From positions 11,613 to 75,612 of the forward strand of contig JACPCX010000179.1 of assembly GCA_016184305.1 (NCBI GenBank): a stretch of DNA of 64,000 nucleotides, written 5' to 3'. Below the pieces are notes generated by a model. That model was not told the DNA's origin. It was given only the letters and a program-made list of their open reading frames with translations, and did no database searches. Below are positions 4,106-58,704 of this stretch, piece by piece. The DNA comes from Candidatus Rokuibacteriota bacterium (GTDB taxonomy: Bacteria; Methylomirabilota; Methylomirabilia; Rokubacteriales; CSP1-6). The position numbers and the translations under genes are program-made. Positions within the stretch are counted from its first letter, which is position 1, and the number at the start of each line of letters is the position of its first letter.

Positions 4106-5077
4106 ATGGACAGGGACAGGCTCCTGAGGCTCGCCGACCGGGTCCTGCGCATGGAGGCCTCGGGCATCCTCGCCCTCTGCGCCAGGCTCGACGACCGGTT
4201 CGTGACCGCCGTGGAGCTGCTCCGCGGCTGCCGCGGACGCGCCATCGTGACGGGCATGGGGAAATCGGGGCACGTGGGTCGCAAGGTCGCCGCCACGCTG
4301 GCGAGCACGGGCACGCCGGCCTACTTCCTCCATCCCGCCGAGGGCGTGCACGGTGACATCGGGATGGTGGCGCGGGACGATGTGGTCCTGGCCCTGTCCA
4401 ACTCCGGGGAGACGGATGAGCTGCTGGCGGTGCTCCCGCTGCTCAAGCGGCTGGCGGTGCCGCTGATCCTCCTCACGGGCAGCCCGTCCTCGACCCTCGC
4501 CCGCCAGTCCGACGTGGTGCTCGACGTGGGCGTCAGCGAGGAGGCCTGCCCCATGAATCTCGCGCCCACCTCGAGCACGACCGCCGCGCTCGCCATGGGG
4601 GATGCGCTCGCCATGGCGCTCCTCGATCTGCGCGGGCTCCGCCCGGAGGACTATGCCGCGCTCCACCCGGCAGGCAGCCTCGGCTGGAAGGCGCTGTTCA
4701 AGGTGAGTGACCTCATGCACGCGGGCGAGGCGGTGCCGGTGGTCTCGGAGAGCAGCACGATGAAGGACGCCATCGCCGAGATGACCGCCAAGCGGCTCGG
4801 GATGACGACGGTGGTGGACGGTCGGGGACGGCTCCTGGGCGTGCTCACCGACGGCGACCTGCGGCGTCAGCAGCTCCTGGGCGGCTCGATTCTCGAGCGC
4901 CCCGTCGCCGAGTGCATGACGCGGGATCCCAAGCGCATCGCCGGCGACGACCTGGCGGCCAAGGCCCTCTCGGTGATGGAGGCCCACGCCATCACGAGCC
5001 TCGTGATCGCCGACGAGGCGAACCGGCCCGCCGGCGTCATCCACCTGCACGACATCCTTCGCGCCAAGATCGTGTGA
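4106..5077 (+). CDS. kdsD: arabinose-5-phosphate isomerase (SIS domain plus two CBS domains)
   Basis: MDRDRLL... start. SIS motif VTGMGKSGHVGRK, with a CBS pair at the C-terminus. Confidence 0.9.
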   Translation: MDRDRLLRLADRVLRMEASGILALCARLDDRFVTAVELLRGCRGRAIVTGMGKSGHVGRKVAATLASTGTPAYFLHPAEGVHGDIGMVARDDVVLALSNSGETDELLAVLPLLKRLAVPLILLTGSPSSTLARQSDVVLDVGVSEEACPMNLAPTSSTTAALAMGDALAMALLDLRGLRPEDYAALHPAGSLGWKALFKVSDLMHAGEAVPVVSESSTMKDAIAEMTAKRLGMTTVVDGRGRLLGVLTDGDLRRQQLLGGSILERPVAECMTRDPKRIAGDDLAAKALSVMEAHAITSLVIADEANRPAGVIHLHDILRAKIV

Positions 5078-5595
5078 GGACCCCCTCGGCTCGCGCCGCG
5101 CGCATCCGCCTCCTGGTCCTCGATGTGGATGGCGTCCTCACCGACGGCGGGCTCCTCTATGGCGTCGGCGGCGAGGAGATCAAGCGCTTCGACGTCCATG
5201 ACGGCTGGGCGCTTCAGGCCGCCCTCGGGGCCGGGCTCGAGGTCGGGGTGATCTCCGGGCGCGCGTCGGGCGCGGTATCGCGCCGGATGGCCGAGCTCGG
5301 CATTCGCGAGGTCCATCAGGGGGTCGCGAACAAGTCGGAGTGTTTGCTGCAAATGATGGCGCGGCTCGGAATCAAGCCGGCGGACGTCGCGGTGATGGGC
5401 GATGACCTGCCGGACCTGCCTCTGATGAAGTCGGTGGGGCTCGCGCTGGCGCCGGCCAACGCTGTTCCCGAGCTCCGGCGCGCCGCCCACTGGGTGTCGC
5501 GCCGGCGGGGTGGGGAGGGCGCGGTCCGGGAGGCCATCGAGATGATTCTGGAGGTCCGGAAGGCCTGGCCGCCCCCGGCGCTCGAAGGCCGCTGA
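5074..5595 (+). CDS. kdsC: KDO-8-phosphate phosphatase (HAD family)
   Basis: GTG 5074 overlaps the kdsD stop. LVLDVDGVLTDG and GDDLPDLP HAD motifs. Confidence 0.85.
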   Translation: MRTPSARAARIRLLVLDVDGVLTDGGLLYGVGGEEIKRFDVHDGWALQAALGAGLEVGVISGRASGAVSRRMAELGIREVHQGVANKSECLLQMMARLGIKPADVAVMGDDLPDLPLMKSVGLALAPANAVPELRRAAHWVSRRRGGEGAVREAIEMILEVRKAWPPPALEGR

Positions 5596-5646
5596 GGGTC
5601 TCAGGCGGCCTTTCTTCATTGCCGCCCTAGGGGGGGCTGTGCTAGC

Positions 5647-6252
5647 GTGGTACTGAAATTGCATACCCAGCGATTTTCGCGCTATATCCTGGTCGGTGTC
5701 GCGCTGTTCGTGGTCGCCATCGCGACCGTCCTCGTCGTGAGAGGACGGGCGACGAGGACGCAGCGGCCCGAGATCGGCGCCACGACGGCTGACTACCGGA
5801 TCAAGGAAGTGCATTTGCAGGAGGAGTCGCGGGACGGCATGCGGTGGCAGCTCGACGCCGATCAGGCGGAGGCCTACGAGCAGCAGGGCAAGACGATGCT
5901 CCGGAAGGTGACGATCCGGATCCAGGAGCCGCAGCGGAGCTGGACGGTCACGGGTGACGAGGGAGAGCTGGCGCACGAGACGAAGAACGTGGAGCTCAGG
6001 GGGAACGTGGTGCTGATCTCGAGCGATGGACTCCGCCTGGAGACGACGCGGCTGCGGTGGGACGCGGCGCAGCAGCGCGCCTGGACGGACGACCCCGTCA
6101 CCGTGTTCCGCCCGGGTGCGGTGGTCAAGGGCCTGGGGCTCGACGCGCGCGTGGGTGCGCAGCACACGGAGATCAAGGGGCGGCTCCGGGCGACGTTCGG
6201 GAAGGGCCCGGCCGAGCCGGCAGCGCCGGTGACGGCGGGAGCCCGGCGGTGA
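5647..6252 (+). CDS. lptC: LPS export system protein LptC
   Basis: N-terminal TM anchor followed by a beta-jellyroll-like sequence. Position between kdsC and lptA matches the usual gene order. Confidence 0.75.
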   Translation: MVLKLHTQRFSRYILVGVALFVVAIATVLVVRGRATRTQRPEIGATTADYRIKEVHLQEESRDGMRWQLDADQAEAYEQQGKTMLRKVTIRIQEPQRSWTVTGDEGELAHETKNVELRGNVVLISSDGLRLETTRLRWDAAQQRAWTDDPVTVFRPGAVVKGLGLDARVGAQHTEIKGRLRATFGKGPAEPAAPVTAGARR

Positions 6253-25732: not shown

Positions 25733-25838
25733 GACCGCTAGATACAGTATGACTTGGCAGAACACTCTCTAAATATCGGGTGTGGCGCCGCCGCCGGGGC
25801 GCTCGCCCGGCCCCGGCTACCCGAAGGGGGACCACGGC

Positions 25839-26999
25839 ATGGGGATGTGGGTCGGTCGCGGCCGGAAGGCTCGGGCGGCGTATGGCTTCGATGACATCGC
25901 CCTCGTTCCCGGGGCGGTGACGATCAATCCCAACGAGGTGGACATCTCGTGGGATCTCTGCGGTCGACGCTTCGAGATCCCCGTCATCGCCGCGGCCATG
26001 GACGGCGTCGTGAGCCCGGCACTGGCCATGGAAATGGGCCGGCTCGGGGGCTTGGCGGTGCTGAACCTCGAAGGCATCTTCTCCCGCTACGAGAATCCCG
26101 AGGATGTCCTCGACCGCATCACCTCCGCCAGCCTGGAAGAGGCCACCAAGATCATCCAGGGAATCTACGGCGAGCCCATCAAGGAAGATCTGATCCACAA
26201 ACGCATCACGGAGATCAAGAAGGGGGGCGGGCCGGTCGTCGTCTCGTCCATCCCCCAGCGCGCCGAGCGCTTTGCGAAGATCGCCGAGGACGCGGGCGCG
26301 GACTTCTTCGTGGTCCAGTCCACGGTCACGACAGCGCGGCACATCGCCACCGAGTACCCCCCGGTGGACCTGCGGAAGCTCAAGAAGAACCTCTCCATCC
26401 CTCTCATCGTCGGCAACACGGTGACCTACGAGGCCTGCCTCGAGCTCATGGACTGCGGCGTGGACGCGCTGCTGATCGGCGTGGGGCCTGGGGCGGCATG
26501 CACCAGCCGCGAGGTGCTGGGCCTCGGCGTGCCGCAGGTGACCGCGACCGCGGACTCGGCCGCGGCGCGCGATTTCTACTACAAACGGACCGGGCGGTAC
26601 GTGCCAATCATCACGGACGGCGGCATGACCACCGGCGGGGACATCTGCAAGGCGCTGGCCTCGGGCGCGGATGCGGTGATGATCGGCTCCGCCTTCGCCC
26701 GCGCCCATGAGGCGCCGGGCCGGGGCTACCACTGGGGGATGGCGACTCCCCACTCGAACCTGCCGCGCGGCACGCGCATCCGTGTCGGCGTCGCCGGCCC
26801 CCTGGAGCAGATCCTCTTCGGGCCCGCCTTCACCGAGGACGGCACGCTCAACCTCGTGGGAGCCATCCGGACATGCATGGGCTCCGTGGGTGCGGCCACG
26901 ATCCGGGAGCTCCAGCAGACCGAGTTGATCATCGCACCCTCGATCAAGACCGAGGGCAAGGTGTTCCAGCGCGCCCAGAAGCTGGGCTCCCCTCGCTGA
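25839..26999 (+). CDS. IMP dehydrogenase family protein lacking the CBS subdomain (GuaB3-like)
   Basis: RBS GAAGGGGGA. FDDIALVPG N-terminus and catalytic-loop-like GVGPGAACTSREVLGLGVPQ. About 386 aa, with no CBS insert. Confidence 0.8.
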   Translation: MGMWVGRGRKARAAYGFDDIALVPGAVTINPNEVDISWDLCGRRFEIPVIAAAMDGVVSPALAMEMGRLGGLAVLNLEGIFSRYENPEDVLDRITSASLEEATKIIQGIYGEPIKEDLIHKRITEIKKGGGPVVVSSIPQRAERFAKIAEDAGADFFVVQSTVTTARHIATEYPPVDLRKLKKNLSIPLIVGNTVTYEACLELMDCGVDALLIGVGPGAACTSREVLGLGVPQVTATADSAAARDFYYKRTGRYVPIITDGGMTTGGDICKALASGADAVMIGSAFARAHEAPGRGYHWGMATPHSNLPRGTRIRVGVAGPLEQILFGPAFTEDGTLNLVGAIRTCMGSVGAATIRELQQTELIIAPSIKTEGKVFQRAQKLGSPR

Positions 27000-27057
27000 C
27001 GCGCAGGCGCGGCCTGCCGCCACGGGTCCCGCCCGCAGGGCTCCGCCTGCGTCGGCG

Positions 27058-27300
27058 CCCCGATGAGCGCTTGCGCGAAGAGGCCCAACCGCAACCCGTG
27101 ATCATCCACATTCAAGCGAGATGGTCAGACCCCCGCAGGGGCGAAGAGGCCGAACCGCAACCCGAAATGATCCACGTTCAACCGAGATGGTCAGAGCGCC
27201 AACGGCCCGAAGAGGCCCCAAGGTTGACCCGACGCCCCGATGAGCGCTTGCGCGAAGAGGCCCAACCGCGAGGCGAAGTCATCCACGTTCAAGCGAGATA
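27058..27300 (+). repeat. Family A structured repeat: four tandem copies ending at the guaA start codon
   Basis: Units at about 27058-27122, 27123-27188, 27189-27234 (short) and 27235-27300. They share the CGAAGAGGCC.AACCGC...CCACRTTCAASCGAGAT core and a hairpin whose sequence co-varies between copies. Confidence 0.9.
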
Positions 27301-27301
27301 A

Positions 27302-28843
27302 ATGGACAAGATCGCGATCCTCGACTTCGGCGCCCAGTACACCCAGCTGATTGCCCGCCGGATCCGTGAGATGAGTGTCTACTCGGAGATCATCGCGTGC
27401 ACCCATCCTGTCGAGGAGGTGCTGGCCGGCGGCTACAAGGGGATCGTGCTGTCTGGCGGCCCGTCCAGCGTGTACGAGGACGGGGCGCCCCTGCCCGACC
27501 GGAAGCTCTTCGAGGCGGGCATCCCGATCCTGGGTATCTGCTACGGCATGCAGGCCATGGCGTATCTCCTGGGCGGCCACGTGGTCCCGGCCGAGCGCCG
27601 CGAATACGGTGGCGCCGAGCTCACGCTGGAGGGCACGGGGGAGCTCCTGGACGGAATCGTCCCGGAACGCGGCAACCGGATCACGGTGTGGATGAGCCAC
27701 GGGGACACGGTCATGCGGCCGCCCAGGGGGTTCACGCGGCTGGCATCCACGGCCAACTGCCCGGTGGCGGCCATGTCCGATCCGCGGCGCCGGCTCTTCG
27801 CGGTGCAATTTCACCCGGAGGTGGCCCACACTCCGCAGGGCAAGACGGTGCTGAGCAATTTCCTCCGCGCATGCGGCGTTGCTCGCGACTGGTCCATGGC
27901 CTCCTTCGTGGACTCGGCCATCGAGACGGTCCGCCGGACGGTGGGGAGCGATCAGGTGCTGTGCGCCCTGTCGGGCGGGGTGGACTCCTCGGTGGTGGCG
28001 GTCCTGGTGCACAAGGCGGTCGGGGAGCAGCTGACGTGCCTGTTTGTCGACAATGGGCTGCTCCGGAAGGGAGAGGCCGAGGCCGTTGTCGAGACGTTCC
28101 GTGATGCCTTCAAGATCAAGCTCATCCATGTGAATGCAACCGGCCGGTTTCGCGAACGACTTCGTGGCGTCATCGACCCCGAAACCAAGCGAAAGCGGAT
28201 CGGGGCCGAGTTCATTGCGGTGTTCGAGGAAGAGGCGCGGAGGCTCGGGCACATCCCGTGGCTGGCCCAGGGCACCCTCTATCCCGACGTGATCGAATCG
28301 GTATCCTTCAAGGGGCCGTCGGCGACCATCAAGACCCACCACAACGTGGGCGGGCTGCCGACCCGGATGCAGTTCAGGCTCGTGGAGCCGCTCCGGGAGC
28401 TGTTCAAGGACGAGGTGCGGGGGGTGGGGGCGCTGCTTGGCCTGCCCCCCGAGATCATCTGGCGTCAGCCCTTCCCGGGGCCGGGGCTCGCGATCCGCGT
28501 GCTGGGCGAGGTCACCGAGGAGCGGCTCGTCCTCCTGCGGGAGGCGGATGCGGTAGTGCAGGAGGAGGTGCGTGCGGCAGGACTCGAGCGCGAGCTGTGG
28601 CAGGCCTTCGCCGTGCTGCTGCCGATCCGCACGGTGGGGGTCATGGGCGACTTCCGCACCTATGCCCAGGTCATCGCGCTACGGGCGGTGATGAGTCAGG
28701 ACGCGATGACGGCGGACTGGGCGCACCTGCCCTACGATCTCCTCGGGAAGATCTCGAGCCGCATCATCAACGAGGTGAAGGGCGTCAACCGGGTGGTGTT
28801 CGATATCTCGTCGAAGCCCCCCAGCACCATCGAGTGGGAATAA
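27302..28843 (+). CDS. guaA: GMP synthase (glutamine-hydrolysing)
   Basis: [23 protein letters not shown], the ATP-PPase motif SGGVDSS, and a C-terminal PPSTIEWE. Confidence 0.95.
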
Positions 28844-36582: not shown

Positions 36583-37722
36583 ATGCGGGTCGGACTGTTC
36601 ACCAACAACTACCTGCCCTTCCGGGGCGGGGTCGCCACCTCCGTCGAGACGCTCCGCGAGGGGCTTGAGGTCCTCGGGCACCGCACCTGGGTCTTCGCGC
36701 CGGCCCCCTCGGCCAGAGTGGAGGACCCGCCACGGGTCTTCCGGTACCGGTCGATCCCCGCGCCCACCTATCCCGGCTTCGCCCTGCCGCTGCCGTTCTC
36801 GCCGCGCCTCGCGCGGACGGCGCGCGGACTCGACCTCGAGGTCATCCACGCGCAGCATCCGTTCCTTCTTGGGGTGACGGCGCGGCGGCTCGCCCGCCGG
36901 CAGGACATCCCGCTCGTCTTCACCTACCACACGCGCTACGAGAAGTACGCGCACTACGTGCCCCTGCCGCAGCGCCTGGTGGCCGCGCTGGCGGTGCGGC
37001 TCTCCTGCCGGTTCGCGAACGCGGCGGACCTGGTGGTGGCGCCGTCGGCGGGGATCGCCGAGATGCTCCACGCACGCGGCGTCGCGGCGCCCGTGGCCGT
37101 GGTGCCCACGGGAGTCCCGGTGGACCGCTTCGCGCCGGGAGATCGCGTCGCCGCGCGCCGGAGGCTCGGGCTGCCGGCGGACGGGCCGCTCTGCCTCTAC
37201 GTGGGGCGGCTGGACCGGGAGAAGAACGTGGACCGGGTGATCGCCGCCTTCGGCTCGATTGCCGGGGCGGTGTCGGCGGTCCGGCTCTCCCTCGTGGGGC
37301 AGGGCAGTCACGCGCAGGCGCTTCGACGGATCGCCGAGGCGAGTCCGGCCTGCGAACGGATCCACTTCCACGGGGGGGTGGCGCGCGACGACCTCCCACC
37401 TTACTATCAGGCCGCCGACCTGTTCCTCTTCGCGTCCGAGACGGAGACCCAGGGGCTCGTTCTCGCCGAGGCGCACGCCTGCGGGCTCGCCGCCGTGGCT
37501 GTGCGCGCCTCGGGCGTCGAGGAGGTCGTCGTGGACGGGGAGACGGGTGTCCTCACCAAGCCGGATGCCGGCGACCTGGCAGACGCGGCCATCGCGCTCC
37601 TGCTGGAGCCCGAGCGGCGCCGCGCGATGGGACAGGCGGCGCGTGTCGTGGCGGAGCGGTCGTTCTCGGCATCCGTCCAGGTCGCGGCGATGGCGGCCGA
37701 ATACGCGCGTCTGTTGCGATGA
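36583..37722 (+). CDS. glycosyltransferase family 4 (GT-B fold)
   Basis: MRVGLFTNNYLPFRGGVATSV N-terminus. C-terminal E(x7)E-like region FASETETQGLVLAEAHACGL. Confidence 0.75.
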   Translation: MRVGLFTNNYLPFRGGVATSVETLREGLEVLGHRTWVFAPAPSARVEDPPRVFRYRSIPAPTYPGFALPLPFSPRLARTARGLDLEVIHAQHPFLLGVTARRLARRQDIPLVFTYHTRYEKYAHYVPLPQRLVAALAVRLSCRFANAADLVVAPSAGIAEMLHARGVAAPVAVVPTGVPVDRFAPGDRVAARRRLGLPADGPLCLYVGRLDREKNVDRVIAAFGSIAGAVSAVRLSLVGQGSHAQALRRIAEASPACERIHFHGGVARDDLPPYYQAADLFLFASETETQGLVLAEAHACGLAAVAVRASGVEEVVVDGETGVLTKPDAGDLADAAIALLLEPERRRAMGQAARVVAERSFSASVQVAAMAAEYARLLR

Positions 37723-37976
37723 ACGGACGGGAGCTGAGACTGGTGCTGCGGTCGGAGTGGGACGGCAGCGCCGGCCCCTCGGGGCGCAGCGGGCTCCTGG
37801 CCGGCGACGAGCGGGTGCGCACTCTTCTGCGGGTTCTGCTCACCTATCCGGAGGTATGCTACATTCTGCCCGATCGCATTCGCCTCGAACCCTCGGCGGA
37901 TCCTCGCTTGCTGGAGACCATCACGCGCTTCCTCGCGCGCCAGTCCTGGCTGGTGACGACCGTCAGCGTCCGATGA
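37719..37976 (+). CDS. hypothetical small protein (85 aa)
   Basis: ATGA overlap with the glycosyltransferase stop and acceptable GC3. No recognisable domain. Confidence 0.35.
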   Translation: MNGRELRLVLRSEWDGSAGPSGRSGLLAGDERVRTLLRVLLTYPEVCYILPDRIRLEPSADPRLLETITRFLARQSWLVTTVSVR

Positions 37977-38011
37977 GCGGCGGCAGCGAAACGGCCACGG
38001 TGACAACGGCA

Positions 38012-38087
38012 CCCCGATGAGCGCTTGCGCGAAGAGGCCATCCCGCAACGTGAAGTCATCCACATTCAGGCGAGACGGACGATGTGG
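38012..38087 (+). repeat. Family A structured repeat: single copy plus an extra hairpin upstream of the PaaA-like gene
   Basis: CCCCGATGAGCGCTTGCGCGAAGAGGCC...GTCATCCACATTCAGGCGAGAC. CCACAT (38060-38065) pairs with ATGTGG (38082-38087), just before the GGAGAGGAG RBS. Confidence 0.85.
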
Positions 38088-38100: not shown

Positions 38101-38925
38101 ATGAGCGAGCAGGACGCCGAGGTGCGGCTGCTGCAGAGGATCCGGGCGGGGGAGCGCATCGAGTCGTCCGGCGAGATGACCGAGGAGTACCGCCGCAACG
38201 TGATCCACCTGATGACCATGCAGGCCGACTCCGAGCTCGCCGGCGCCTTCGGCTACGTGCCGTGGATCATGAAGGCGCCGACCATCGAGGAGAAACACGT
38301 GGTGGCGCAGATCGTGAGGGACGAGGTCCGCCACGCGCACGTGATGTACGGGCTGCTGGAGGATCTGGGAGTTGACGTGGGGACCCACATCGCCCGGCAC
38401 GACTTCACCCTCCGGCTCGACGACGCGGCCGCCGACATCGGCACCCAGCGAGTGGCCGACGACAAACGCGTGAACATCTTCTACTACCCCATCGACCGCT
38501 GGGCCGACTTCGTATTCTTCAACTTCTGCATGGACCGCGGGGCGGGCCATCAGCTCGAGGACGTGCGGCAGTGCTCCTACGGGCCGTGGGCGCGGGCCAT
38601 CGAGGGCATCTTCAAGGAAGAGAAGATGCACATCCGCCACGGCGAGCTATGGGTGCAGCGCCTGGGCGCCGATCCGGTGACGCGCCCGGAGGCACAGGCG
38701 ACGCTGGGCAAGTGGTACGTGCGGACGATGAACATCTTCGGACGCCCCGGATCGCCGCGCAATGCGCTGTACCGGAAGTACGGCCTGAAGCTCCGCGATA
38801 ACGACGAGGTGCGGCAGGGGTTCGCCCGCGAGGTCAAGGAGCTGGTCGAGGCCGCCGGGCTCAAGGCGCCCGAGTGGACGCCTGCGTGGGACCGCCTCCC
38901 GGAAGAGGCGCAGATTCCGGGATGA
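38101..38925 (+). CDS. PaaA/PaaC-like ferritin-fold di-iron oxygenase subunit (1,2-phenylacetyl-CoA epoxidase subunit A family)
   Basis: GGAGAGGAG lies 8 nt upstream. Di-iron type ExxH motifs (RDEVRHAH, EEKMHIRH). The ORF-track start at 38017 lies inside the repeat and is less likely. Confidence 0.7.
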   Translation: MSEQDAEVRLLQRIRAGERIESSGEMTEEYRRNVIHLMTMQADSELAGAFGYVPWIMKAPTIEEKHVVAQIVRDEVRHAHVMYGLLEDLGVDVGTHIARHDFTLRLDDAAADIGTQRVADDKRVNIFYYPIDRWADFVFFNFCMDRGAGHQLEDVRQCSYGPWARAIEGIFKEEKMHIRHGELWVQRLGADPVTRPEAQATLGKWYVRTMNIFGRPGSPRNALYRKYGLKLRDNDEVRQGFAREVKELVEAAGLKAPEWTPAWDRLPEEAQIPG

Positions 38926-44742: not shown

Positions 44743-44952
44743 TCCGATGAGGGCCGAAGGCCCGAAGAGGCCGAACCGCCACCCGTGATCCTCCACGTTC
44801 AACCGAGACAATCCGATGAGGGCCGAAGGCCCGAAGAGGCCGAACCGCCACCCGTGATCCTCCACGTTCAACCGAGACAATCCGATGAGGCCCGAAGGCC
44901 CGAAGAGGCCGAACCGCCACCCGTGATCCTCCACGTTCAACCGAGACGATAA
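44743..44952 (+). repeat. Family A structured repeat: three near-identical 69-nt tandem copies ending at the hyuA start codon
   Basis: Units start at 44743, 44812 and 44881 (period exactly 69). Only about 1 substitution plus a different 3' tail in the third copy. The array ends ...CGAGACGATAA followed by ATG. Confidence 0.95.
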
Positions 44953-49442: not shown

Positions 49443-50075
49443 TGCGCTTCAACGGGAAGGTCGTGCTGGTCACGGGAGCGGGGGCCGGCATCGGCGAGGC
49501 GACGTCACGGCGGTTCGCGCTGGAGGGCGCCCGGGTCGCGGTCAACGACGCCAACGCGGCCGGGGCGGAGCGCGTGGCGAAGGAGATCGGCGGCGAGGCC
49601 ATGGCGGTGCCCGGGGACGTCACGAAGACGGCGGAGGTCGCGGCCATGGTGACGCGGGTTGAACGTGAACCTGAAGGGCACCTTCCTTCCCGCGCAGGCC
49701 GTCCTGCCGGGGATGCGGGAGCGCGGGTGGGGGCGCGTCATCACGACGTCCTCCATCGGCTCGCTGGGCAATATCGGCCAGGCCAACTACGCCGCGTCCA
49801 AGGCAGGGGTGATCGGGCTCACCAAGACGCTGGCGCTCGAGTACGCGAAGTACGGCGTCACGGTGAACTGCATCGCGCCCGGCGCCACCATGACGAGCAT
49901 GCTGGCGGGGGTGCCCGACAAGATCAAGGAACAGATCATCGCCAAGATCCCGGTGGGGCGCATCGCCGACCCCTCGGAGATCGCCGCCGTGCACTGCTTC
50001 CTGGCCTCCGACGAGGCGGCCTTCATCACGGGGCAGGTGCTCTTCGTCGACGGCGGCATGACCGTCGGGATATAG
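49442..50075 (+). pseudogene. short-chain dehydrogenase/reductase (FabG-like) with an internal deletion and frameshift
   Basis: N-part GKVVLVTGAGAGIGEA ends about 49655. C-part VNLKGTF...YAASKAG...FVDGG continues in another frame (49659..50075). The NNAG-motif region is absent. Confidence 0.7.
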
Positions 50076-50087: not shown

Positions 50088-51283
50088 ATGCGCAAGGTGG
50101 CGCTGGTGGGAGCGGGCGTGACGAAGTTCGGGGTCCGCAAGGCGACCTATCGCGATCTCATCTGGGAGGCCGGCAAGGCCTGCTTCGACTCGGTGCCGTC
50201 GGTCAAGCCGCGCGACCTCGAGGGTCTCGTGGTCGGCTCGGTGATGCCCGAGCGCACGGCGTTCCAGAGTCACATCTCCTCGCTCGCCGCCGAGGCCCTC
50301 GGGATCACGCCCAGCGCGCTGTCGGCGCGCACCGAGCACATGTGCGCCTCGGGCACCGTCGGCATCCGCTACGCCTATGCCTTCATCGCCGCCGGGCTCG
50401 CCGACCTGGTGATGGTCCTCGGCGTCGAGAAGCTCAATCAGCCGGCCGCGGAGGAGGCCATCCTCAACATGGGCACAGGCGTGGACCGCGACTGGGAGGC
50501 CTGCTACGGACTGACGGCGCCACCCTGCTTCGCGCTGGCGGCCCAGAAGCACATGGCGCAGTACGGCACCACGGAGGAGCAGCTGGGCCTCGTGGGCGTC
50601 AAGAACCACGCCCATGCCAGCAAGAACCCGAATGCCCACTTCCAGAAGGGGGTCACGCTGGAGCAGGTGATGGGCTCGCGGATGATCGCCTCGCCGCTCC
50701 GGCTCTTCATGTGCTCCCCCATCACGGACGGGGCTGCCGCGGTGATCCTCGCCTCCGAGGAGCGGGCCCGGGACCTCACGGACTGCCCCGTGTGGATCCT
50801 TGGCACGGGTCAGGCGCTGGACGGCTTCACGCTCACCTCGCTGCATGAGGACTATGCCCACTGGCCCGCCATGAAGCGGGCGTCGCAGTCGGCCTATCGC
50901 ATGGCAGGCATCGGCCCCGCGGATGTGGACCTGGCCGAGGTGCACGACTGCTTCGCGATTGCCGAGATCATCGCCTACGAGGAGCTGGGCTTCTGCCAGA
51001 AGGGCGAGGGCGGGCCCTTCGTGGCAACGGGGCGCTCCGACTATGGTGGGGATGTGGTGGTGAACCCGGTGGGGATGTGGTGGTGAACCCGAGAGGCGGG
51101 CTCATGGGCTGCGGCCACCCACTCGGGGCCACGGGCGTGGCCCAGGCCGCCGAGGTCTACGCCCAGCTCCGTGGCGAGGCGGGGCCGCGCCAGGTGGCCG
51201 ACGCCGCGATCGGGCTCACCCACAACAATAGCGGGATGGGGGAGCACGTGGTGATGATCTATGGCCGCGAGGCCGCGTCATGA
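50088..51283 (+). pseudogene. thiolase-like (SCP-x/archaeal type) acetyl-CoA C-acyltransferase, frameshifted by a 23-bp tandem duplication
   Basis: Active-site region EHMCASG. ORF 50088..51086 stops right after the duplication. The C-terminal [17 protein letters not shown]... continues in ORF 51077..51283. Confidence 0.7.
51045..51090 (+). repeat. perfect 23-bp tandem duplication (GGTGGGGATGTGGTGGTGAACCC x2)
   Basis: 51045-51067 is identical to 51068-51090. Confidence 0.95.
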
Positions 51284-52141: not shown

Positions 52142-53755
52142 ATGGCGAGGGAGAAGAAGATCACGGACGTGGTGCTGCACTCGGGGCTCCCCGTGAAGCC
52201 GGTATACGGCCCCGTGGATCTCGCCGGCTTCGATCCGGCCCGCGAGCTCGGCGCGCCGGGCGAGTACCCCTTCACGCGCGGGATCCATCCGGAGATGTAC
52301 CGAGCGCGGTTGTGGACGATGCGCCAGTACGTCGGCTTCGGGACGCCGGGAGAGACCAACGGCCGCTTCAAGTACCTGATGGCCCATGGACAGGATGCCC
52401 TGAACGTGGCCTTCGATCTGCCGACCCAGCTCGGGCTCGACTCCGACGACCCCCGCGCTGCGGGTGAGGTCGGGCGCGTGGGCATGGCCATCGACAGCCT
52501 GGCCGACATGGAGGAGGCCTTCGATGGCATCGCCGCCGACCGCGTGAGCGTGTCCTTCACCATCAACTCCGTGGCCGCCATCATCCAGGCCATGTACATG
52601 GTCGTCGCCGAGAAGCAGGGAATCGGCTGGGACCGCATCGTGACCACGCCGCAGAACGACATCCTGAAGGAGTTCGTGGCGCGCGGCACCTGGGTGTACC
52701 CGGTGGAGCCCTCGCTGCGGCTCGTGGCCGATCTCGCCGAGTTCTGCGCCCGGCGCGCGCCGCGCGTCAACCCCATCTCCGTCTGCGGCTACCACATCCG
52801 GGAGGCCGGCTGCACCCCGGCGCAGGAGATGGCCTATGGGCTCGCCATCGTGGCGGCCTACACGGAGCTGCTCCTTCGCCGCGGGCTCGACGTGGACGAC
52901 TTCGCGCCGCGGCTGTCGTTCAACTTCACCTGCTGGGGGAAGATCTTCGAGGAGGTGGCGAAGTTCCGGGCCGGCCGCCGGCTCTACGCCCGGATGATGA
53001 AGGAGCGCTTCGGCGCGAGGAACCCCAAGAGCATGATGTTCCGCTCGCTGATCGGCGGCGGGGGCTCGGCCTTCACCGTGCAGGAGCCGGAGAACAACAT
53101 CGTCCGCGGCGCCTATCTCGCGCTGACGGCGGCGCTCTCGGGCGCCCAGACCATGGCACTGCCCACCTACGACGAGGCCTACACCATCCCGTCGTCGAAG
53201 GCCCAGCTCATCGCCCTCCGGACGATGCAGATCTGCGCCGAGGAGAGCGGGGTCGCGGACACGGTGGATCCGCTGGGCGGCTCGTACTACGTCGAGGCGC
53301 TGACCACCGAGATGGAGCGGAAGATCCTGGAAGAGATGGCCCACGTGGAGACGCTCGGCGGCATCGTCGAGGCGGTCAAGTCCGGGGCGATCCAGGCCGA
53401 GGTCGCCCGCCAGGCGTACCTCTTCGAGCAGAAGCTCCTGTCGGGCGAGATCCCCAAGGTCGCCGTCAATCGCCACGTCGCGCCCGGCGCCGAGAGCCAG
53501 GGCCGGGATCTCGAGCTCTATCGCGTCGATCCCCGCGCCGCCGAGGCGCAGCTGGCCACGCTCGAGCGGCTCAGGCGGGAGCGCGACCCCCGCGCGGTAT
53601 CCCGGGCCCTGTCGCGGCTGCGAGACGAGGCCCGGGGCCCGGGAAATCTCATGGAGCCCATCCTCGACGCGGTACGTGCCTACGCGACGCTTGGTGAGAT
53701 GGCGGGCGCGCTCAAGGAGGTCTTCGGCGAGCACAAGGAGCCGGTGAGGTTCTGA
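52142..53755 (+). CDS. acyl-CoA mutase large (catalytic, TIM-barrel) subunit
   Basis: GAGGAGG RBS. YPFTRGIHPEMYRARLWTMRQYVGFGT and NVAFDLPTQLGLDSD are typical of the methylmalonyl-CoA mutase family. Confidence 0.88.
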   Translation: MAREKKITDVVLHSGLPVKPVYGPVDLAGFDPARELGAPGEYPFTRGIHPEMYRARLWTMRQYVGFGTPGETNGRFKYLMAHGQDALNVAFDLPTQLGLDSDDPRAAGEVGRVGMAIDSLADMEEAFDGIAADRVSVSFTINSVAAIIQAMYMVVAEKQGIGWDRIVTTPQNDILKEFVARGTWVYPVEPSLRLVADLAEFCARRAPRVNPISVCGYHIREAGCTPAQEMAYGLAIVAAYTELLLRRGLDVDDFAPRLSFNFTCWGKIFEEVAKFRAGRRLYARMMKERFGARNPKSMMFRSLIGGGGSAFTVQEPENNIVRGAYLALTAALSGAQTMALPTYDEAYTIPSSKAQLIALRTMQICAEESGVADTVDPLGGSYYVEALTTEMERKILEEMAHVETLGGIVEAVKSGAIQAEVARQAYLFEQKLLSGEIPKVAVNRHVAPGAESQGRDLELYRVDPRAAEAQLATLERLRRERDPRAVSRALSRLRDEARGPGNLMEPILDAVRAYATLGEMAGALKEVFGEHKEPVRF

Positions 53756-53799: not shown

Positions 53800-56145
53800 G
53801 TGAGCTTCGACATCATCGGCAAGGCGACCCCGAAGCGAGACGGCCTCGACAAGGTCATGGGCCGCACCCAGTACCTGCACGACATGACGCTCCCGCGCAT
53901 GGCCCACGGGGCGATCCTGAGGACCCAGTTCCCGCATGCGCGGATCGTGAGCATCGACACCACGCGCGCGGAGCGCCTCCCCGGGGTCATCGGGGTGATC
54001 ACGGCCGACACGGTCGAGCAGCGCTTGTTCGGCTATGCCAAGGACCATCGGGCACTCAAGGGCGGCCCCGGGAACCGCAAGGTCCGCTGCATCCGGGACG
54101 AGATCGCGGCGGTGGCGGCCGAGACGGAGGAGATCGCCCAGGAAGCCCTCACCCTCATCGACGTGGAGTACGAGGAATTGCCCGCGGTATTCGACCCGGA
54201 ATCGGCCCTCCGGCCCGGAGCGCCCCTGGTCCACGAGGAACTGGGCACGAACCTGGTGAATCTCCGCTACCAGTTCTCCCACGGGGACGTGGAGGGCGGG
54301 TTCGCGCGGGCGGCGGCGGTGGTCGAAGGGACGTACCGGTTGAACTACGTGACCACGGCCTGCCTCGGCACCATGGTCGCCATCGCGTCCTGGGGAGCGG
54401 ACGGCGCGCTCACCATGTGGACGACGAGCCAGGTGCCCTTCCTCTATCAGCGGGACCTGGGCGAGGCGCTCGGCATCGGCGGCGATCGGATCCGGGTGAT
54501 GCAGCCGCCCGTCGGCGGGAACTTCGGCCGCGGGCTCGACCTCTACCCCATCGACATCATCGCGGCCCTCCTGGCCCGCCACGTGCGGCGGCCGGTGAAG
54601 ATCGCCTTCGAGCGGCTGGAGGAGTTCATCGCGAGCCCCACGCGCGAGCCCTGCCTGATCCACCTCCGGTCGGCGGCGGACGCCGAGGGGCGACTGCTGG
54701 CGCGGGAGGCGCGCGTCGTCATCGACAATGGCGGTTACGTCTCCTGGGGCTCGACGACGCCTTACGTGATGCTCTCCACCACGGCGGGCCTCTACCGCTG
54801 CCCGGCCTTGCGCTTCGACACGACCATCGTCTACACGAACAACCCGTACTCGGGCTCCATGCGTGGCTACGGCAACCTCGAGGCCACCTTCGCCATCGAG
54901 GCGCAGATGGACGACCTCGCCGAGACGCTGGGCCTCGACCGCGTGGAGATCCGGCGGCGCAATGCCACCCGCTCCGGCGACGTCAATCCGCAGGGCAACG
55001 TGATCACCTCCTGCGCCATGACCGAGTGCCTGGACACCGTGGAGAAGGCGATCGCCCGGACCGTCACCGGACCCGCGCGCCCGGGGTGGAAGCGCGGGGT
55101 GGGCTACGCGGCCATGTTCCACGTGGCGGGCGGCGCCCGCGTGTACCGCTCCGACGGGTGCGGGGCCATCCTCAAGCTGGACGACTTCGGCACGGTGACG
55201 CTGCTGACGGGCGCCAGCGAGATCGGGCAGGGGTCGGAGACCGTGCTCGCCATGATCGTGGCCGAGGAGCTGGGCATCCCGCTCGATCGCCTGGCGGTGA
55301 TCAACAGCGACACCTCCGTGAAGCCGTGGGACGTGGGCGTGCACGCCAGCCGCACGACCTTCATCGCGGGCAACGCGGCGCTCCAGGCCGCGCGCTCGCT
55401 CAAGACGAGACTGCTCGCCATGGCGGCGGAGGTGATGGACGAGAAGGCGGAGGAGCTGGAGCTCGTCGCGGGGCGGGTCCGGGTGAAGGGCCGTCCGGAG
55501 CGAGGCATGGAGTACGACCGCGTGGTCCGCGCGGGTCACTTCCGCCAGGGCGGCCAGGTGCTCGTCGCCGAGGCCTTCTACGACCCGCCCAGCGAGATGC
55601 TGTCGAAGGACCTCCGGGGAAACGTCTCGGCCACCTACGGCTTCGCGGCCCAGGCGGCGCTCGTGGAGGTGAGCGAGGAGACCGGCGAGGTGCGGGTGCT
55701 CAAGATCATCTCCGCCCACGACGTGGGCCGGGCGCTCAATCCGATGGCCGCCGAGGGGCAGATCCACGGTGGGATCCACATGGGGCTTGGCTACGCGCTC
55801 TCCGAGGAGCTGATCATCCGAGGGGGGCAGGTGCTCAATCCGCAGTTCATGGAGTACGCGCTGTTCCCCGCGTCGGACATGCCGGAGATCGACGTGCACC
55901 TGATCGAGACGGTGGACGAGCACGGCCCCTTCGGGGCCAAGGGGCTGGGCGAGTCGGGAGTGATCCCGGTGTCCGCGGCCATCGCCAACGCGGTCAAGGA
56001 TGCCACCGGGGTGCGTTTCACCGAGCTGCCCATGACCCCCCAGCGCGTGTATCAGGCGCTGGGGGCGGCGCATCGCGCAGAACGGGCGCCCCGCCACGTG
56101 GACTCCTCGACATTCGGGCCAGATGAAGACGGGAGTCTCGCATGA
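53800..56145 (+). CDS. molybdopterin-dependent hydroxylase large subunit (xanthine dehydrogenase / aldehyde oxidase / 4-hydroxybenzoyl-CoA reductase alpha family)
   Basis: GTG start with GGAGAAGG upstream. N-terminal IGKATPKRDGLDKVMGRTQY a/b-hammerhead domain and C-terminal GAKGLGESGVIPV. 781 aa. Confidence 0.85.
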   Translation: MSFDIIGKATPKRDGLDKVMGRTQYLHDMTLPRMAHGAILRTQFPHARIVSIDTTRAERLPGVIGVITADTVEQRLFGYAKDHRALKGGPGNRKVRCIRDEIAAVAAETEEIAQEALTLIDVEYEELPAVFDPESALRPGAPLVHEELGTNLVNLRYQFSHGDVEGGFARAAAVVEGTYRLNYVTTACLGTMVAIASWGADGALTMWTTSQVPFLYQRDLGEALGIGGDRIRVMQPPVGGNFGRGLDLYPIDIIAALLARHVRRPVKIAFERLEEFIASPTREPCLIHLRSAADAEGRLLAREARVVIDNGGYVSWGSTTPYVMLSTTAGLYRCPALRFDTTIVYTNNPYSGSMRGYGNLEATFAIEAQMDDLAETLGLDRVEIRRRNATRSGDVNPQGNVITSCAMTECLDTVEKAIARTVTGPARPGWKRGVGYAAMFHVAGGARVYRSDGCGAILKLDDFGTVTLLTGASEIGQGSETVLAMIVAEELGIPLDRLAVINSDTSVKPWDVGVHASRTTFIAGNAALQAARSLKTRLLAMAAEVMDEKAEELELVAGRVRVKGRPERGMEYDRVVRAGHFRQGGQVLVAEAFYDPPSEMLSKDLRGNVSATYGFAAQAALVEVSEETGEVRVLKIISAHDVGRALNPMAAEGQIHGGIHMGLGYALSEELIIRGGQVLNPQFMEYALFPASDMPEIDVHLIETVDEHGPFGAKGLGESGVIPVSAAIANAVKDATGVRFTELPMTPQRVYQALGAAHRAERAPRHVDSSTFGPDEDGSLA

Positions 56146-57409: not shown

Positions 57410-58704
57410 GCCACCCGCCGGTGCCCATGTTCCAGCCCTCGGTGGAGGCCCGTCCGCGGGAGCAGCTGGAGGCGCTCCAGCTCGAGCGGATGCGCCGGAC
57501 ACTCGGCCTCATCAAGGAGAACGCCGCCTACCGCAACCGCATCGGCCGGGTGGATCCCGAGGCACTCCGCTCGGTCGCCGACTGGTCCCGGCTGCCCTTT
57601 CTCACCAAGGACGAGCTGCGCGATGCCTACCCGCTCGGCCTCTGCTGCGCCCCGCGGGGGGCGATCCAGCGCGTGCACATGTCCTCCGGGACCACCGGCA
57701 ACCCCATCGTCACCCCGTACACGCGCGCCGACATCGCCCAGTGGGGCGAGGTGATGGCCCGCTGCTACGTGGCGGCGGGCGTGACCTCGGCCGACATCGT
57801 CCAGATCACGCCCTCCTTCGGCCTGTTCACCGGGGGCTTCGGCTTCCACTACGGCGCCGAGCGGCTGGGCGTCATGGTGATCCCCGCGGGCGCCGGGCGC
57901 AGCGCCTTCCAGCTCAAGCTCATGAAGGACCTCGGGGCGACGGTGCTGGCCGGCATCGCGACCTACCCGCTCCGGCTCCTCGAGGTCGCGCGCGAGGCGC
58001 GGTTCAACCTGCGGGAGCTGCGGCTGCGCGTGGCCATCCTGGGATCGGAGATGTGGTCGGACGACCTGCGCTCCCTGATCGAGCACGAGCTCAACGTGGA
58101 GACCTTCGACATCATCGGGATGACGGAGAGCGGGGGGCCCGGGCTCGGCATCGACTGCCGCGCTCACGACGGGATCCATGTGTGGGAGGACCACTACTAC
58201 TGCGAGATCGTCGATCCCGAGAGCGGGGCGCTGCGCCCGGACGGGCAGGAGGGGGAGCTCGTGCTCTCCACGCTCACGCGCGAAGGGCTGCCCCTGGTCC
58301 GCTACCGGACCCACGACCTCACCCGCGTGGTGAGCCGCGCCGCCTGCGCCTGCGGGCGCACTCACGTCCGGCTCGCCCGCCTGCGCGGCCGCACCGACGA
58401 CATGGTGATCTTCCGGGGGGTCAACTTCTACCCCCGCCAGGTCGAGTCCCTCGTGCTGGGGCGGCCCGGAGTGAGCCACGAGTACCAGGTGCTCCTCGAG
58501 CGGGCCGCGGAGGGAGGGGACCGGATGCGCCTGCTCATCGAGGTGCGGCCCGGCTTCGACCCCGAGAGCGTCAAGGGGATCGAGCGGGACTTCAAGGATG
58601 TTCTCAACCTCACCCCGGAAGTGAGCATTCTCCAGGAAGGAGAGATCCCGCGCCCGCAGGGCAAGGCGGTACGGATCATGGACAACCGCGCGGCGGGCTC
58701 ATGA
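57406..58704 (+). CDS. paaK: phenylacetate--CoA ligase family protein
   Basis: GTGA overlap with the ACAD gene. LPFLTKDELRDAYP, SSGTTGNP and YRTHD motifs. Confidence 0.88.
   Translation: MSHPPVPMFQPSVEARPREQLEALQLERMRRTLGLIKENAAYRNRIGRVDPEALRSVADWSRLPFLTKDELRDAYPLGLCCAPRGAIQRVHMSSGTTGNPIVTPYTRADIAQWGEVMARCYVAAGVTSADIVQITPSFGLFTGGFGFHYGAERLGVMVIPAGAGRSAFQLKLMKDLGATVLAGIATYPLRLLEVAREARFNLRELRLRVAILGSEMWSDDLRSLIEHELNVETFDIIGMTESGGPGLGIDCRAHDGIHVWEDHYYCEIVDPESGALRPDGQEGELVLSTLTREGLPLVRYRTHDLTRVVSRAACACGRTHVRLARLRGRTDDMVIFRGVNFYPRQVESLVLGRPGVSHEYQVLLERAAEGGDRMRLLIEVRPGFDPESVKGIERDFKDVLNLTPEVSILQEGEIPRPQGKAVRIMDNRAAGS

Follow-up and report, generated by a model that had tools for sequence, protein, structure and literature searches.

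Mycobacterial interspersed repetitive units (MIRUs; Supply et al. 1997, as reviewed in PMC12548453 and PMC3184786) are the closest described counterparts of the repeat presented below. According to PMC3184786, they are elements of 40–100 bp that lie in polycistronic spacers, contain G-C-rich internal inverted repeats, have ORFs that overlap the adjacent genes and are associated with tetranucleotide direct repeats. A related arrangement has been engineered: in bicistronic designs (cited in PMC12548453), the gene of interest is preceded by a leader ORF that runs over its start. At the level of DNA, a close counterpart is the 35-bp REP of Pseudomonas putida and relatives, which for P. putida has the published consensus c-ggcctcTTCGCGGGtaaaCCCGCtCCtaCaggg (PMC11585281).

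Here, a repeat family is described from a 64,000-nucleotide stretch of Candidatus Rokuibacteriota DNA, which is referred to as the window. The 302-bp spacer between an IMPDH-family ORF (stop at 26999) and guaA (start at 27302) holds four head-to-tail units, the third of which is a short variant. Further units precede a paaA-like gene and a hydantoinase A gene. The features are as follows:

27058–27122, + strand: unit A1, which starts with CCCCGATGAG and has the 3' box TCCACATTCAAGCGAGAT
27067–27076, + strand: hairpin of A1, GCG-cttg-CGC
27076–27085, + strand: core of A1, CGAAGAGGCC
27123–27188, + strand: unit A2, 66 nt, with a junction of the read-through type (GGTCAGAC); core and 3' box present
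27130–27141, + strand: hairpin of A2, CCCC(C)-gca-GGGG
27189–27234, + strand: unit A3, a short module with hairpin GCC-aac-GGC and core CGAAGAGGCC, its 3' box replaced by cCAAGGTTGAcccgacg
27235–27301, + strand: unit A4, ending in GAGATAA, with TAA (27299–27301) abutting the guaA ATG at 27302
27302–28843, + strand: guaA (GMP synthase), start codon in register with the end of the array
37968–38020, + strand: degenerate half-unit TCCGATGAGCGGCGGCAGCGAAACGG, in which TGA 37974–76 is the stop of the ORF at 37719–37976
38012–38076, + strand: unit B, a single copy upstream of the paaA-like ATG at 38101
44743–44952, + strand: array C, three 69-bp units (44743–44811, 44812–44880 and 44881–44952)
56066–56130, + strand: relic of a decayed unit, 3' half only, upstream of an ORF starting at 56142

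The initial annotation had reported eight copies in the window. This count is right (four in the guaA spacer, one near 38.0 kb and another three near 44.7 kb), the relic at 56066 being additional to it, and all coordinates and quoted arm sequences agree with the sequence, including the hairpins at 27067–76, 27130–41, 27198–206 and 27244–53. It is also borne out that guaA has no ordinary Shine-Dalgarno sequence, as unit A4 runs directly into the ATG. The end of array C (CGATAA) likewise abuts the hydantoinase A ATG at 44953, and the paaA-like gene after unit B retains its own Shine-Dalgarno sequence, GGAGAGGAGA. The guaA spacer was found to contain neither a promoter-like nor a terminator-like site. 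The A3-type short module is not peculiar to this locus and also occurs in other genomes (L001, L032, L048, L072, L082, L088, L095, L098 and L109).

The repeats are more than a chance pattern. Tandem Repeats Finder reports 27076–27218 (period 66, 81% matches) and 44743–44947 (period 69, 99% matches), and the units of array C are 99% identical to one another. The core, CGAAGAGGCCSAACCGC, is present in seven exact copies in the window, all on the + strand. At up to three mismatches it has 10 matches, compared with a mean of 1.0 in shuffled sequences, none of 100 of which reached 10. The 3' box occurs in six exact copies and one near copy. A covariance model of 103 related units gives the window copies scores of 79–86 bits (E about 1e-20). 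A further weak match to this model lies at 4982–5061 (11 bits, E 0.48), and two others, at 52872–52959 and 58229–58290, were rejected as their sequence looks like ordinary coding DNA.

Each unit is 62–69 bp long, stands singly or in head-to-tail arrays and can be divided into three parts. The first is CCG-ATGA-G followed by a G+C hairpin of 3–5 bp whose sequence is free. The second is the invariant, purine-rich core CGAAGAGGCC, followed by nAACCGC. The third is the 3' box TCCACRTTCARGCGAGATAA, which is less G+C-rich and ends at the next start codon. Across more than 100 copies neither the core nor the 3' box changes, in contrast to the remainder of the unit.

A scan of a genome collection placed the window copies in a large family; it yielded 109 stretches among the matches listed, so that the counts which follow are lower bounds. 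At least 55 arrays with about 150 units are found in Candidatus Rokubacteria GWA2_70_23 and GWC2_70_16 and in Methylomirabilia MAGs. The full unit is present in at least 53 loci, which belong to these two, to other Methylomirabilota MAGs and to two MAGs that carry other labels (L045 and L099); the remaining matches listed are single chance matches in unrelated taxa. The covariance model finds at least 84 non-overlapping units in the scan loci, at 26–100 bits. Runs of N interrupt several arrays. Within an array the units are all direct repeats that point the same way as the downstream gene, and inverted pairs are absent. In about 44 of the approximately 55 arrays listed, a co-oriented long ORF with high third-position G+C starts no more than about 31 nt after the last 3' box, and none of them faces a demonstrably opposite gene start. 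On the upstream side, 19 of the arrays listed contain the stop of a long ORF on the same strand, and in another 18 such a stop lies 3–90 nt before the array. The downstream genes are functionally unrelated and include guaA, paaA, hydantoinase and transporter genes.

Copy number varies rapidly between relatives. Orthologous guaA sites hold no unit, one (L006, with flanks 95–98% identical), four (the window) or about eight (L032). Similarly, the hydantoinase site holds three units or two, L023 and L063 differ by two versus eight, and L059 and L107 by three versus two. In L110–L112 the order of the IMPDH-like gene and guaA is kept, the spacers are 6–65 nt and the element is absent; these empty junctions have diverged too far from the filled ones for a target duplication to be defined. 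Most arrays have ATGA at both ends, and the CCG before the first ATGA is invariant. Because of this invariant CCG, a simple duplication of an ATGA target does not fit.

This layout is that of a MIRU in several respects: direct repeats of 40–100 bp, single or in tandem; a position in the spacers of co-oriented polycistronic genes, oriented with transcription; a G+C-rich internal inverted repeat; ends of short ORFs that overlap the flanking stop or start by 4 nt (ATGA); and a copy number that differs among close relatives, with both filled and empty sites known. The differences are that the host phylum is Methylomirabilota and not Actinomycetota, that the Rokubacteria units have an invariant core, a 3' box and a hairpin of free sequence, that their junctions are of several types (read-through, ATGA, GTGA hop and abutting TAA), and that they have no definable target duplication. 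The likeness would thus be one of layout and working and not of sequence, and relatedness in sequence is not expected. As the host belongs to a different phylum, the element is not filed as a MIRU but only as working like one. These repeats are not described in the Rokubacteria genome paper or in the top matches of a full-text literature search. The family itself is new; its kind, the MIRU-like intercistronic repeat, is already known.

The position of the units relative to stop and start codons is strikingly regular. Of the 39 gene starts listed that follow arrays, 28 have their ATG exactly 9 nt downstream of TCCACRTTCAR, and in 38 a stop overlaps (ATGA) or abuts (TAA before ATG) the start. 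By comparison, a stop is found at the start in 34% of 211 putative Shine-Dalgarno-led starts from the same loci (binomial p about 3e-17). ATGA starts account for 29 of the 39, versus 25% in the background. In our own reading of the 39 starts listed, 16 lack an immediately upstream stop and all of these are ATGA, while the non-ATGA starts have TAA or TAG within 1 nt in every case. At the other end, the TGA within the CCGATGAG of the first unit is the stop of a long upstream ORF in 19 of the arrays listed. The ORFs that open at unit ATGs have a modal length of 21–22 codons; of 87 such ORFs, 72 terminate in a stop lying over or directly beside another start. The period between units is divisible by three at 30 of 35 junctions without ATGA and is 2 mod 3 at 12 of 19 junctions with it.

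In the window, connected chains of ORFs are present at all three loci, as checked by translation. Those of arrays A and C are:

27063–27101, + strand: first short ORF of the A array, encoding MSACAKRPNRNP; its ATG lies inside CCGATGAG and its stop is the TGA of a GTGA overlap
27098–27301, + strand: second ORF of the A array, whose GTG overlaps the previous stop; it runs through A1–A4 in the guaA frame and its TAA abuts the guaA ATG
44747–44788, + strand: first short ORF of array C, encoding MRAEGPKRPNRHP and ending in a GTGA overlap
44785–44952, + strand: second ORF of array C, with an overlapping GTG start; it runs through the three units and its TAA abuts the ATG at 44953

At the paaA-like locus, the ATG at 37973 overlaps the TGA at 37974–76 and opens a 15-codon ORF that ends in the TGA at 38018–20. 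This stop is overlapped in turn (ATGA) by the ATG of unit B at 38017, which is in frame with the paaA-like ATG at 38101. The chains have gaps: some need a GTG or TTG start, the guaA chain leaves 60 nt after the upstream stop, and the single guaA unit of L006 has no ATG-led ORF ending at guaA. The open frame around the second ORF of the A array spans 26873–27301.

The strict register with stops and starts and the genome-wide, copy-number-variable distribution point to a MIRU-like, REP-flavoured intercistronic repeat whose short ORFs would hand ribosomes to the next gene, and this is the explanation that we favor, with moderate confidence. The only regular stops are those that touch a start, namely ATGA or GTGA within arrays and ATGA or an abutting TAA at the downstream gene. 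A ribosome would enter from the end of the upstream gene or at a unit's own ATG, pass through one or a few short ORFs and be released exactly at the downstream start, where a separate Shine-Dalgarno sequence is usually missing. As the regular stops overlap or abut starts, the ribosome would be delivered to the downstream start codon. The repeat would thus be tolerated inside operons, with translation of the next gene not cut off. The hairpin and its flanks, which are REP-like, would probably be a DNA-level part that serves spread or array expansion, or else protection of mRNA 3' ends. We infer that the short ORFs are translated and couple translation, and that the element is mobile now or was so formerly. 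Engineered bicistronic designs are similar in that ribosomes reach the start through a short upstream ORF that ends at or across it, whatever the local structure or the Shine-Dalgarno strength. They differ in being synthetic, with a Shine-Dalgarno sequence inside the leader ORF, whereas the Rokubacteria element is natural, repeated and mostly without one.

Control frames temper the argument from register, and codon-phase variability gives no more than a weak coding-like signal (0.83 versus 0.65–0.68 bits). The first stop stands in an ATGA/GTGA or stop-abutting-ATG context in 67% and 72% of cases in control frames versus 83% (Fisher p 0.03), and with ATG only the values are 47–51% in control frames versus 67%. 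The frame-specific relay signal is therefore weaker than first thought, and much of the stop/start signal stems from one conserved motif (GATGAG) and the shared descent of the copies. The result of the control frames lends weight to a competing explanation, that of a REP-type selfish or structural DNA repeat whose hairpin either is recognized in single-stranded DNA by an enzyme of the RAYT or IS200/IS605 type or stabilizes mRNA; the stop and start features would be by-products of the consensus sequence and of the positions at which insertion is tolerated. As a full account of the element we consider it unlikely. Its difficulty lies in the register itself, as the 9-nt spacing and an ATGA or abutting stop at 38 of 39 starts, versus 34%, are hard to obtain as by-products, and the link between period and junction type fits the keeping of frame.

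The comparison with REPs cuts both ways. The 5' module of the unit, GAG with a G+C hairpin and CGAAGAGGCC, nearly equals the Pseudomonas putida REP on the other strand, and the Pseudomonas REPs in L087 show this likeness directly. Both are present in high copy (at least 53 loci and about 150 units here), extragenic and near gene ends, and both have a short G+C hairpin between GAG and CGAAGAGGCC; the Rokubacteria palindrome moreover covaries. REPs, however, occur in both orientations and in inverted pairs, while the Rokubacteria copies are all direct and on the coding strand, with no pairs of the BIME or REPIN type. The conserved 5' GTAG of REPs is not found, the motif being GATGAG, the hairpin sequence is not conserved, and the units add a 40-nt tail that ends at the start codon.

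The hairpin has been argued to keep its pairing while its sequence is replaced, and the larger alignment upholds this. The three central pairs of the inner hairpin are C-G in 46, 50 and 74 of 103 units and G-C in 14, 25 and 5, respectively, with many two-sided C-G/G-C swaps; this covariation was reached by none of 500 shuffles. Within the 103 units the stems are G-C only and have no G-U intermediates, which is what DNA hairpins would show. The outer GATGA/TCATC helix, by comparison, is not supported: 47 of 99 units lack its central pair, and the remaining pairs hardly vary. These results rest on explicit pair counts and a covariance-model alignment; RNAalifold on a MAFFT alignment gave no structure because the hairpin length varies between units. 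The initial annotation had proposed a structured RNA or a REP/MITE-like DNA hairpin. Its RNA half is not supported, as the units fold no better than shuffles (z of -1.6 to +2.2 for single units and -0.1 for the whole guaA array), and its DNA-hairpin half fits better. A MITE, which has terminal inverted repeats and a target-site duplication, does not fit, as the unit ends (CCCCGATGAG and GCGAGATAA) are not complementary and the subterminal GATGA/TCATC arms fail the pairing test.

Known RNA classes fare no better. As had been reported, no Rfam family matches, either in the whole window at gathering thresholds or in 26900–27400 at E up to 10. A metabolite riboswitch is unlikely because the downstream genes are functionally unrelated; in addition, the copies are tandem and near-identical. 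A hammerhead ribozyme has CUGANGA ... GAAA as its core, with an A15.1-U16.1 pair and three surrounding helices. The first-type units, CCGAUGAG-hairpin-CGAAG, place C at U4 and G at 15.1, and the internal units, GGUCAGAG or GGAGAGAG, have no 5' core; no partner for stem I or stem III was found, nor any Rfam hammerhead match at E up to 10. Judged from sequence alone, the flanks do not fit a k-turn or an integron attC site. Long-range pairings (CCGC/GCG, GAA/UUC and N9 hairpins such as ACGUGGA...UCCACGU) were seen by eye in a few copies only. A phage origin was also rejected, the three viral matches being chance coding sequences.

The invariance of CGAAGAGGCC and TCCACRTTCA is a feature for which the relay model gives no reason. 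It counts in favor of a cis-acting leader or intercistronic RNA element that controls or enables initiation itself, with no relay ORFs. Here, the AU-richer, unstructured 3' box could be a landing site for ribosomes independent of the Shine-Dalgarno sequence, with the core bound by a protein or rRNA; alternatively, processing at the unit could free the downstream cistron. The strand is always that of the downstream gene and the ATG distance is fixed, the two boxes stay constant across more than 100 copies of an otherwise variable unit, G+C in the final 23 nt ahead of the ATG is about 43% (counted), below the remainder of the unit, and the downstream genes mostly lack a Shine-Dalgarno sequence. 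In syntenic units from different species, the boxes show 2 differences in 100 nt versus 18 expected at the flanking third-position rate, a formally significant result that carries little weight because the loci were retrieved by a pattern demanding intact boxes. Against such an element stand the missing Rfam match, folding energies no better than those of shuffles, and support for a single short hairpin only, with G-C stems that pass through no G-U intermediates. Tandem, near-identical arrays of variable copy number before unrelated genes are also atypical of regulatory RNAs, and the stops tied to the start codon are left unexplained. We regard this explanation, too, as unlikely. A further reading is less probable still: the core (CGAAGAGGCC and nAACCGC) and the AU-richer 3' box would together be a transferable RNA module, able to recruit ribosomes or pass them on independently of a Shine-Dalgarno sequence, which a REP-like DNA mechanism copied before dozens of genes; the element would then be a mobile 'translation start cassette' and not a passive repeat. 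In the core, a stretch like a Shine-Dalgarno sequence precedes one that resembles the complement of the 3' strand in 16S helix 45, and such a module might contact the ribosome directly.

It is also conceivable, but highly improbable, that the units code for a basic repeat peptide with a function (...AKRPNRxxxSSTFKRD...), made as a small protein or added to the ends of the neighboring proteins. In the consensus unit, third-position G+C is highest in frame a, and several isolated variable sites are third codon positions (CCN, TCN, ACR and GAY). Unit B is in frame with paaA, and at a LivM-like locus in four MAGs the upstream ORF continues across the entire unit to a TAA, TGA or TAG beside the ATG that follows. 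The hairpin region, however, alters the peptide freely, with hairpin spacers of 8, 9, 10 and 11 nt coexisting, the frame used differs between arrays, and many units have in-frame stops. Variability by codon phase is only faintly coding-like, the difference in entropy being small (0.83 versus 0.65–0.68 bits, means from a per-position table). Rickettsia palindromic elements (RPE) are inserted within genes, and the translated protein includes them, while Correia/NEMIS elements have terminal inverted repeats and TA duplications. As in these families, small repeats would persist here through compatibility with the expression of the genes they touch, and at some Rokubacteria loci the upstream reading frame takes in the unit as a C-terminal tail. 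In-gene insertion, terminal inverted repeats and TA duplications are not seen in the Rokubacteria repeat.

If the MIRU-like relay is correct, the family would be a second, independent case of the MIRU strategy, in Rokubacteria, in which a small repeat colonizes operon junctions and is harmless or useful through the passing of ribosomes at overlapping stop and start codons. The hairpin with CGAAGAGGCC that it has in common with Pseudomonas REPs hints at shared mobilizing machinery. The arrays give rise to errors of annotation, among them spurious ORFs and wrongly placed starts or C-termini, and are a likely cause of assembly gaps; they also provide ready VNTR markers with which strains of an uncultured soil and aquifer lineage could be typed. 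With its several junction types, free hairpins and two invariant boxes, this large and varied family constitutes a natural mutational series that is suited to tests of termination-reinitiation and of Shine-Dalgarno-independent starts in high-G+C bacteria.

The 302-bp spacer between the IMPDH-family gene and guaA holds four head-to-tail units of a repeat that recurs elsewhere in the window. The initial annotation described this array as reaching the guaA ATG, and it does so; its hairpin and arm coordinates were checked against the sequence and are all correct.

Units and neighboring genes in the window
25782-26999: IMPDH-family gene, upstream of the guaA spacer
27058-27122: A1, full unit
27123-27188: A2, full unit
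27189-27234: A3, hairpin and core present, without the 3′ box
27235-27301: A4, full unit ending in GAGATAA, the TAA of which abuts the guaA ATG
27302-28843, plus strand: guaA, downstream of the spacer
37968-37995: degenerate half-unit, TCCGATGAGCGGCGGCAGCGAAACGG
38012-38076, same strand as the A units: B, single unit before a PaaA-family gene
44743-44952, same strand as the A units: C, array of three 69-bp units, 99% mutual identity
56066-56130: decayed relic of a unit, GGGCGCCCC fused straight to a 3′-box-like GCCACGTGGACTCCTCGACATTCGGGCCAGATGAAG, 20.9 bits by covariance model

Array C ends in CGATAA, which abuts the ATG of a hydantoinase A gene. ORF 37719-37976, which encodes 85 aa without a Pfam match, terminates at the TGA of the half-unit. 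The relic precedes an ORF that begins at 56142 and is equipped with a GGGAG Shine-Dalgarno of its own. The repeat is present far above chance expectation: the core has seven exact matches in the window, all on the plus strand, among ten at ≤3 mismatches, for which shuffles give a mean of 1.0 and 0/100 reach ten. Window copies score 79–86 bits with the covariance model. Separately, a perfect 23-bp tandem duplication at 51045-51091 (GGTGGGGATGTGGTGGTGAACCC twice; Tandem Repeats Finder score 94) is unrelated to this family.

An alignment of 103 non-redundant units gives the consensus gGGCGCCCCG-ATGA-G, hairpin, CGAAGAGGCC, nAaCCGC, nine variable nucleotides and TCnTCCACrTTCArGCGAGAt. The hairpin is real. 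Its three central pairs are C-G/G-C in 46/14, 50/25 and 74/5 units, with unpaired combinations almost absent; covariation is as high in 0/500 shuffles and collapses in slid controls, which upholds the earlier proposal that pairing is kept while the sequence swaps. As the stems have no G-U or A-U intermediates, this covariation cannot separate RNA from single-stranded DNA. The second helix suggested for the outer arms is not supported: its central pair is unpaired in 47/99 units and the remaining pairs are just conserved bases. Many arrays contain a short module of hairpin, core and nCGGTnG..GGGCGCCCCGATGAG, of which A3 is one example; other variants include units with deletions and a sub-family whose 3′ box is CCACAGTAAGG. 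In L021, L093, L039 and L047 (e.g. L021 minus strand 5457-5713), CCACAGTAAGG or CCACGGTAAGG replaces CCACRTTCARG, and this recurrence in several loci marks a variant lineage, not random decay. Units without hairpin and core in the GWC2_70_16 guaA array (L032 2415-2999; GGTCAAAGGCCCAACCGC...) resemble products of internal deletion between AGAG/AGAGG microhomologies.

The element is a genome-wide family in Rokubacteria. A pattern scan of one genome per species (CGAAGAGGCC-N18-22-CCACRTTCA) returned at least 109 stretches. Among the matches listed, those that also have the hairpin and GATGAG come from Candidatus Rokubacteria GWA2_70_23 and GWC2_70_16, other Methylomirabilota MAGs and two MAGs labelled as other than Methylomirabilota (L045, L099), and unrelated taxa show single matches without the remainder of the unit. 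The window is 95–98% identical to GWA2_70_23 contigs. No copy was found in viral contigs, and the earlier failure to name a family was borne out by Rfam, which gave no match in the window at gathering thresholds and none in the guaA array at E ≤ 10. Repeats are not mentioned in the main Rokubacteria genome paper. Runs of N interrupt several of the MAG arrays, suggesting that the repeats break assemblies.

Genomic context accounts best for the element, its invariant core and 3′ box apart. At the loci examined, array and downstream gene always share a strand. By our tally, a long ORF rich in third-position G+C begins within ~31 nt downstream of ~44 of ~55 arrays among the matches listed. The distance from TCCACRTTCAR to the ATG is exactly 9 nt in 28 of 39 starts and 5–14 nt in the rest; a few genes keep an AAGGAG-type Shine-Dalgarno ~20 nt downstream (L001, L007, L018, L020 and unit B). 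Such spacing could also belong to a self-sufficient translation-initiation RNA element, a reading that we consider unlikely; folding energies of single units and of the whole array are no better than those of shuffles. The core and the bases that follow it, at 27076-27094 and in all units, read GAAGAGG-CC-CAACCGCA, which may resemble a Shine-Dalgarno with, after it, a stretch complementary to the 3′ strand of helix 45 in 16S rRNA (E. coli ...CCUGCGGUUGGAUCACCUCCUUA). The genes that follow the arrays have unrelated functions (guaA, paaA, hydantoinase and ABC transport), making a metabolite riboswitch unlikely. As no promoter-like or terminator-like site was found in the guaA spacer, it is probably intercistronic. 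Some arrays sit in 5′ leaders, not between cistrons (L107 4280-4330, L059 1790-1822, L007 6530-6600 and L020 6224-6330). Two of these, L007 and L020, are preceded by good promoters of TTGACA/TATAAC type and retain a Shine-Dalgarno of their own. In L107 and L059, a −10-like box (TATGCT) stands 8 nt ahead of the unit ATG, and a leaderless short ORF could result.

On the basis of sequence, we lean toward a MIRU-like, REP-flavored intercistronic repeat that would keep downstream genes translated via relay ORFs, short frames with overlapping stop and start codons. A stop overlaps or abuts the ATG in 38/39 element-adjacent starts. At these same loci, 34% of 211 putative starts led by a Shine-Dalgarno have any such arrangement (ATGA 25%, abutting stop 0.5%; binomial p ~3e-17, still very small with orthologous loci counted once). 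Overlap as ATGA accounts for 29/39; in the abutting type, TAA, TAG or TGA precedes ATG. By our reading, all 16 starts that have no stop directly ahead of them are ATGA, and every non-ATGA start has a stop abutting or nearly abutting. At the other end, the first unit's TGA in CCGATGAG is the stop of a long upstream ORF in 19 arrays, and in 18 more, by our count, the nearest long same-strand ORF stops 3–90 nt upstream of the array. At a LivM-like locus, the upstream ORF stays open through the single unit; in four MAGs its stop (TAA, TGA or TAG) adjoins the next ATG, and in L052 it falls six nucleotides short of that ATG.

ORFs from unit ATGs have a modal length of 21–22 codons, and 72/87 end at a stop overlapping or abutting another start. 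The period is divisible by three at 30/35 junctions without ATGA and is 2 mod 3 at 12/19 junctions with ATGA, which places the TGA in frame. Connected chains occur at all three window loci; unit B shares its frame with paaA.

ORF chains in the window
A array: ATG27063 to TGA27101; overlapping GTG27098 to TAA27299-301, in the guaA frame, abutting ATG27302
B locus: stop of ORF 37719-37976 overlaps ATG37973, whose ORF runs to TGA38018-20, overlapping ATG38017 of unit B
C array: ATG44747 to TGA44788; GTG44785 to TAA44950-52, abutting ATG44953

The first stop lies in ATGA/GTGA or stop|ATG context in 83% of cases versus 67% and 72% in two control frames, and the ATG-only version gives 67% versus 47–51%. 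The 173 stop triplets inside units comprise 98 ATGA, 31 GTGA, 22 abutting ATG and 22 others, so that most of the register signal reflects the consensus (one GATGAG per unit) and shared descent, not many independent events. A plain REP-type DNA repeat with incidental coding features is, in our judgment, unlikely. Comparison of syntenic units across species gives 2 differences in 100 positions for the two boxes versus 18 expected from the flanking third-position rate, a test biased by retrieval with a pattern that needs intact boxes; the remainder has 39/190 differences versus 35 expected, which is the flanking rate. Variability by codon phase is slightly coding-like, a signal so weak that selection on the peptide itself is unlikely, and a functional peptide repeat is hardly credible.

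Copy number changes between orthologous loci. The guaA site has one unit in GWA2_70_23 (L006), four in the window and ~8 in GWC2_70_16 (L032); the hydantoinase site has 3 versus 2, and other pairs have 2 versus 8 and 3 versus 2. Three more distant relatives (GuaA 76–81% identical) keep the IMPDH-like–guaA order with spacers of 6–65 nt and no element; filled and empty sites therefore both exist, the latter too diverged to place insertion boundaries. Because the CCG ahead of the initial ATGA never varies, it belongs to the left end of the element, which is at odds with a simple duplication of ATGA. One element-free guaA spacer, on a related metagenome contig (L110 ~1420-1500), carries a different, CAGC/GTCAG-rich repeat (cagtcagcgatcagccgtcagacgctgacagccgacagctgatggctga). 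At 49659/49660, 102 bp (34 codons) present in GWA2_70_23 (L105 7282-7383) are missing from the window; the difference reads as coding, and the genomes are otherwise 96–98% identical there.

Of the original interpretation, the REP-like nature stands together with the hairpin; the second helix does not, and there is no sign of a riboswitch or ribozyme. The unit did not qualify as a hammerhead, riboswitch or MITE. Its GAG, hairpin and CGAAGAGGCC nearly match the P. putida REP, the consensus of which is published, read on the opposite strand (PMC11585281; L087). Pseudomonas REPs read GTGGGAGCGGGCGTGCCCGCGAAGAGGCCGG (L087, Pseudomonas sp. NPDC090592, e.g. minus strand around 5042), and the common GAG, G+C hairpin and CGAAGAGGCC could reflect shared mobilizing machinery or coincidence. 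Unlike Pseudomonas REPs, the Rokubacteria units never form inverted pairs and lack GTAG. We know of no RAYT for them.

Mycobacterial MIRUs, as two papers describe them (PMC12548453, PMC3184786), are 40–100-bp direct repeats of polycistronic spacers with G+C-rich internal inverted repeats and ORFs overlapping neighboring genes; insertion reportedly takes place at start codons, the MIRU ORF being coupled to the gene at −4 spacing. The Rokubacteria element has every one of these architectural features and, by this analogy, MIRUs are its nearest functional analogue. It is filed as MIRU-like in working, not as a MIRU, because the likeness is one of architecture and Rokubacteria belong to another phylum than mycobacteria. 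The element is a new family of a kind already known, and through the overlapping stop/start relay ORFs in its units, the genes downstream would stay translated.
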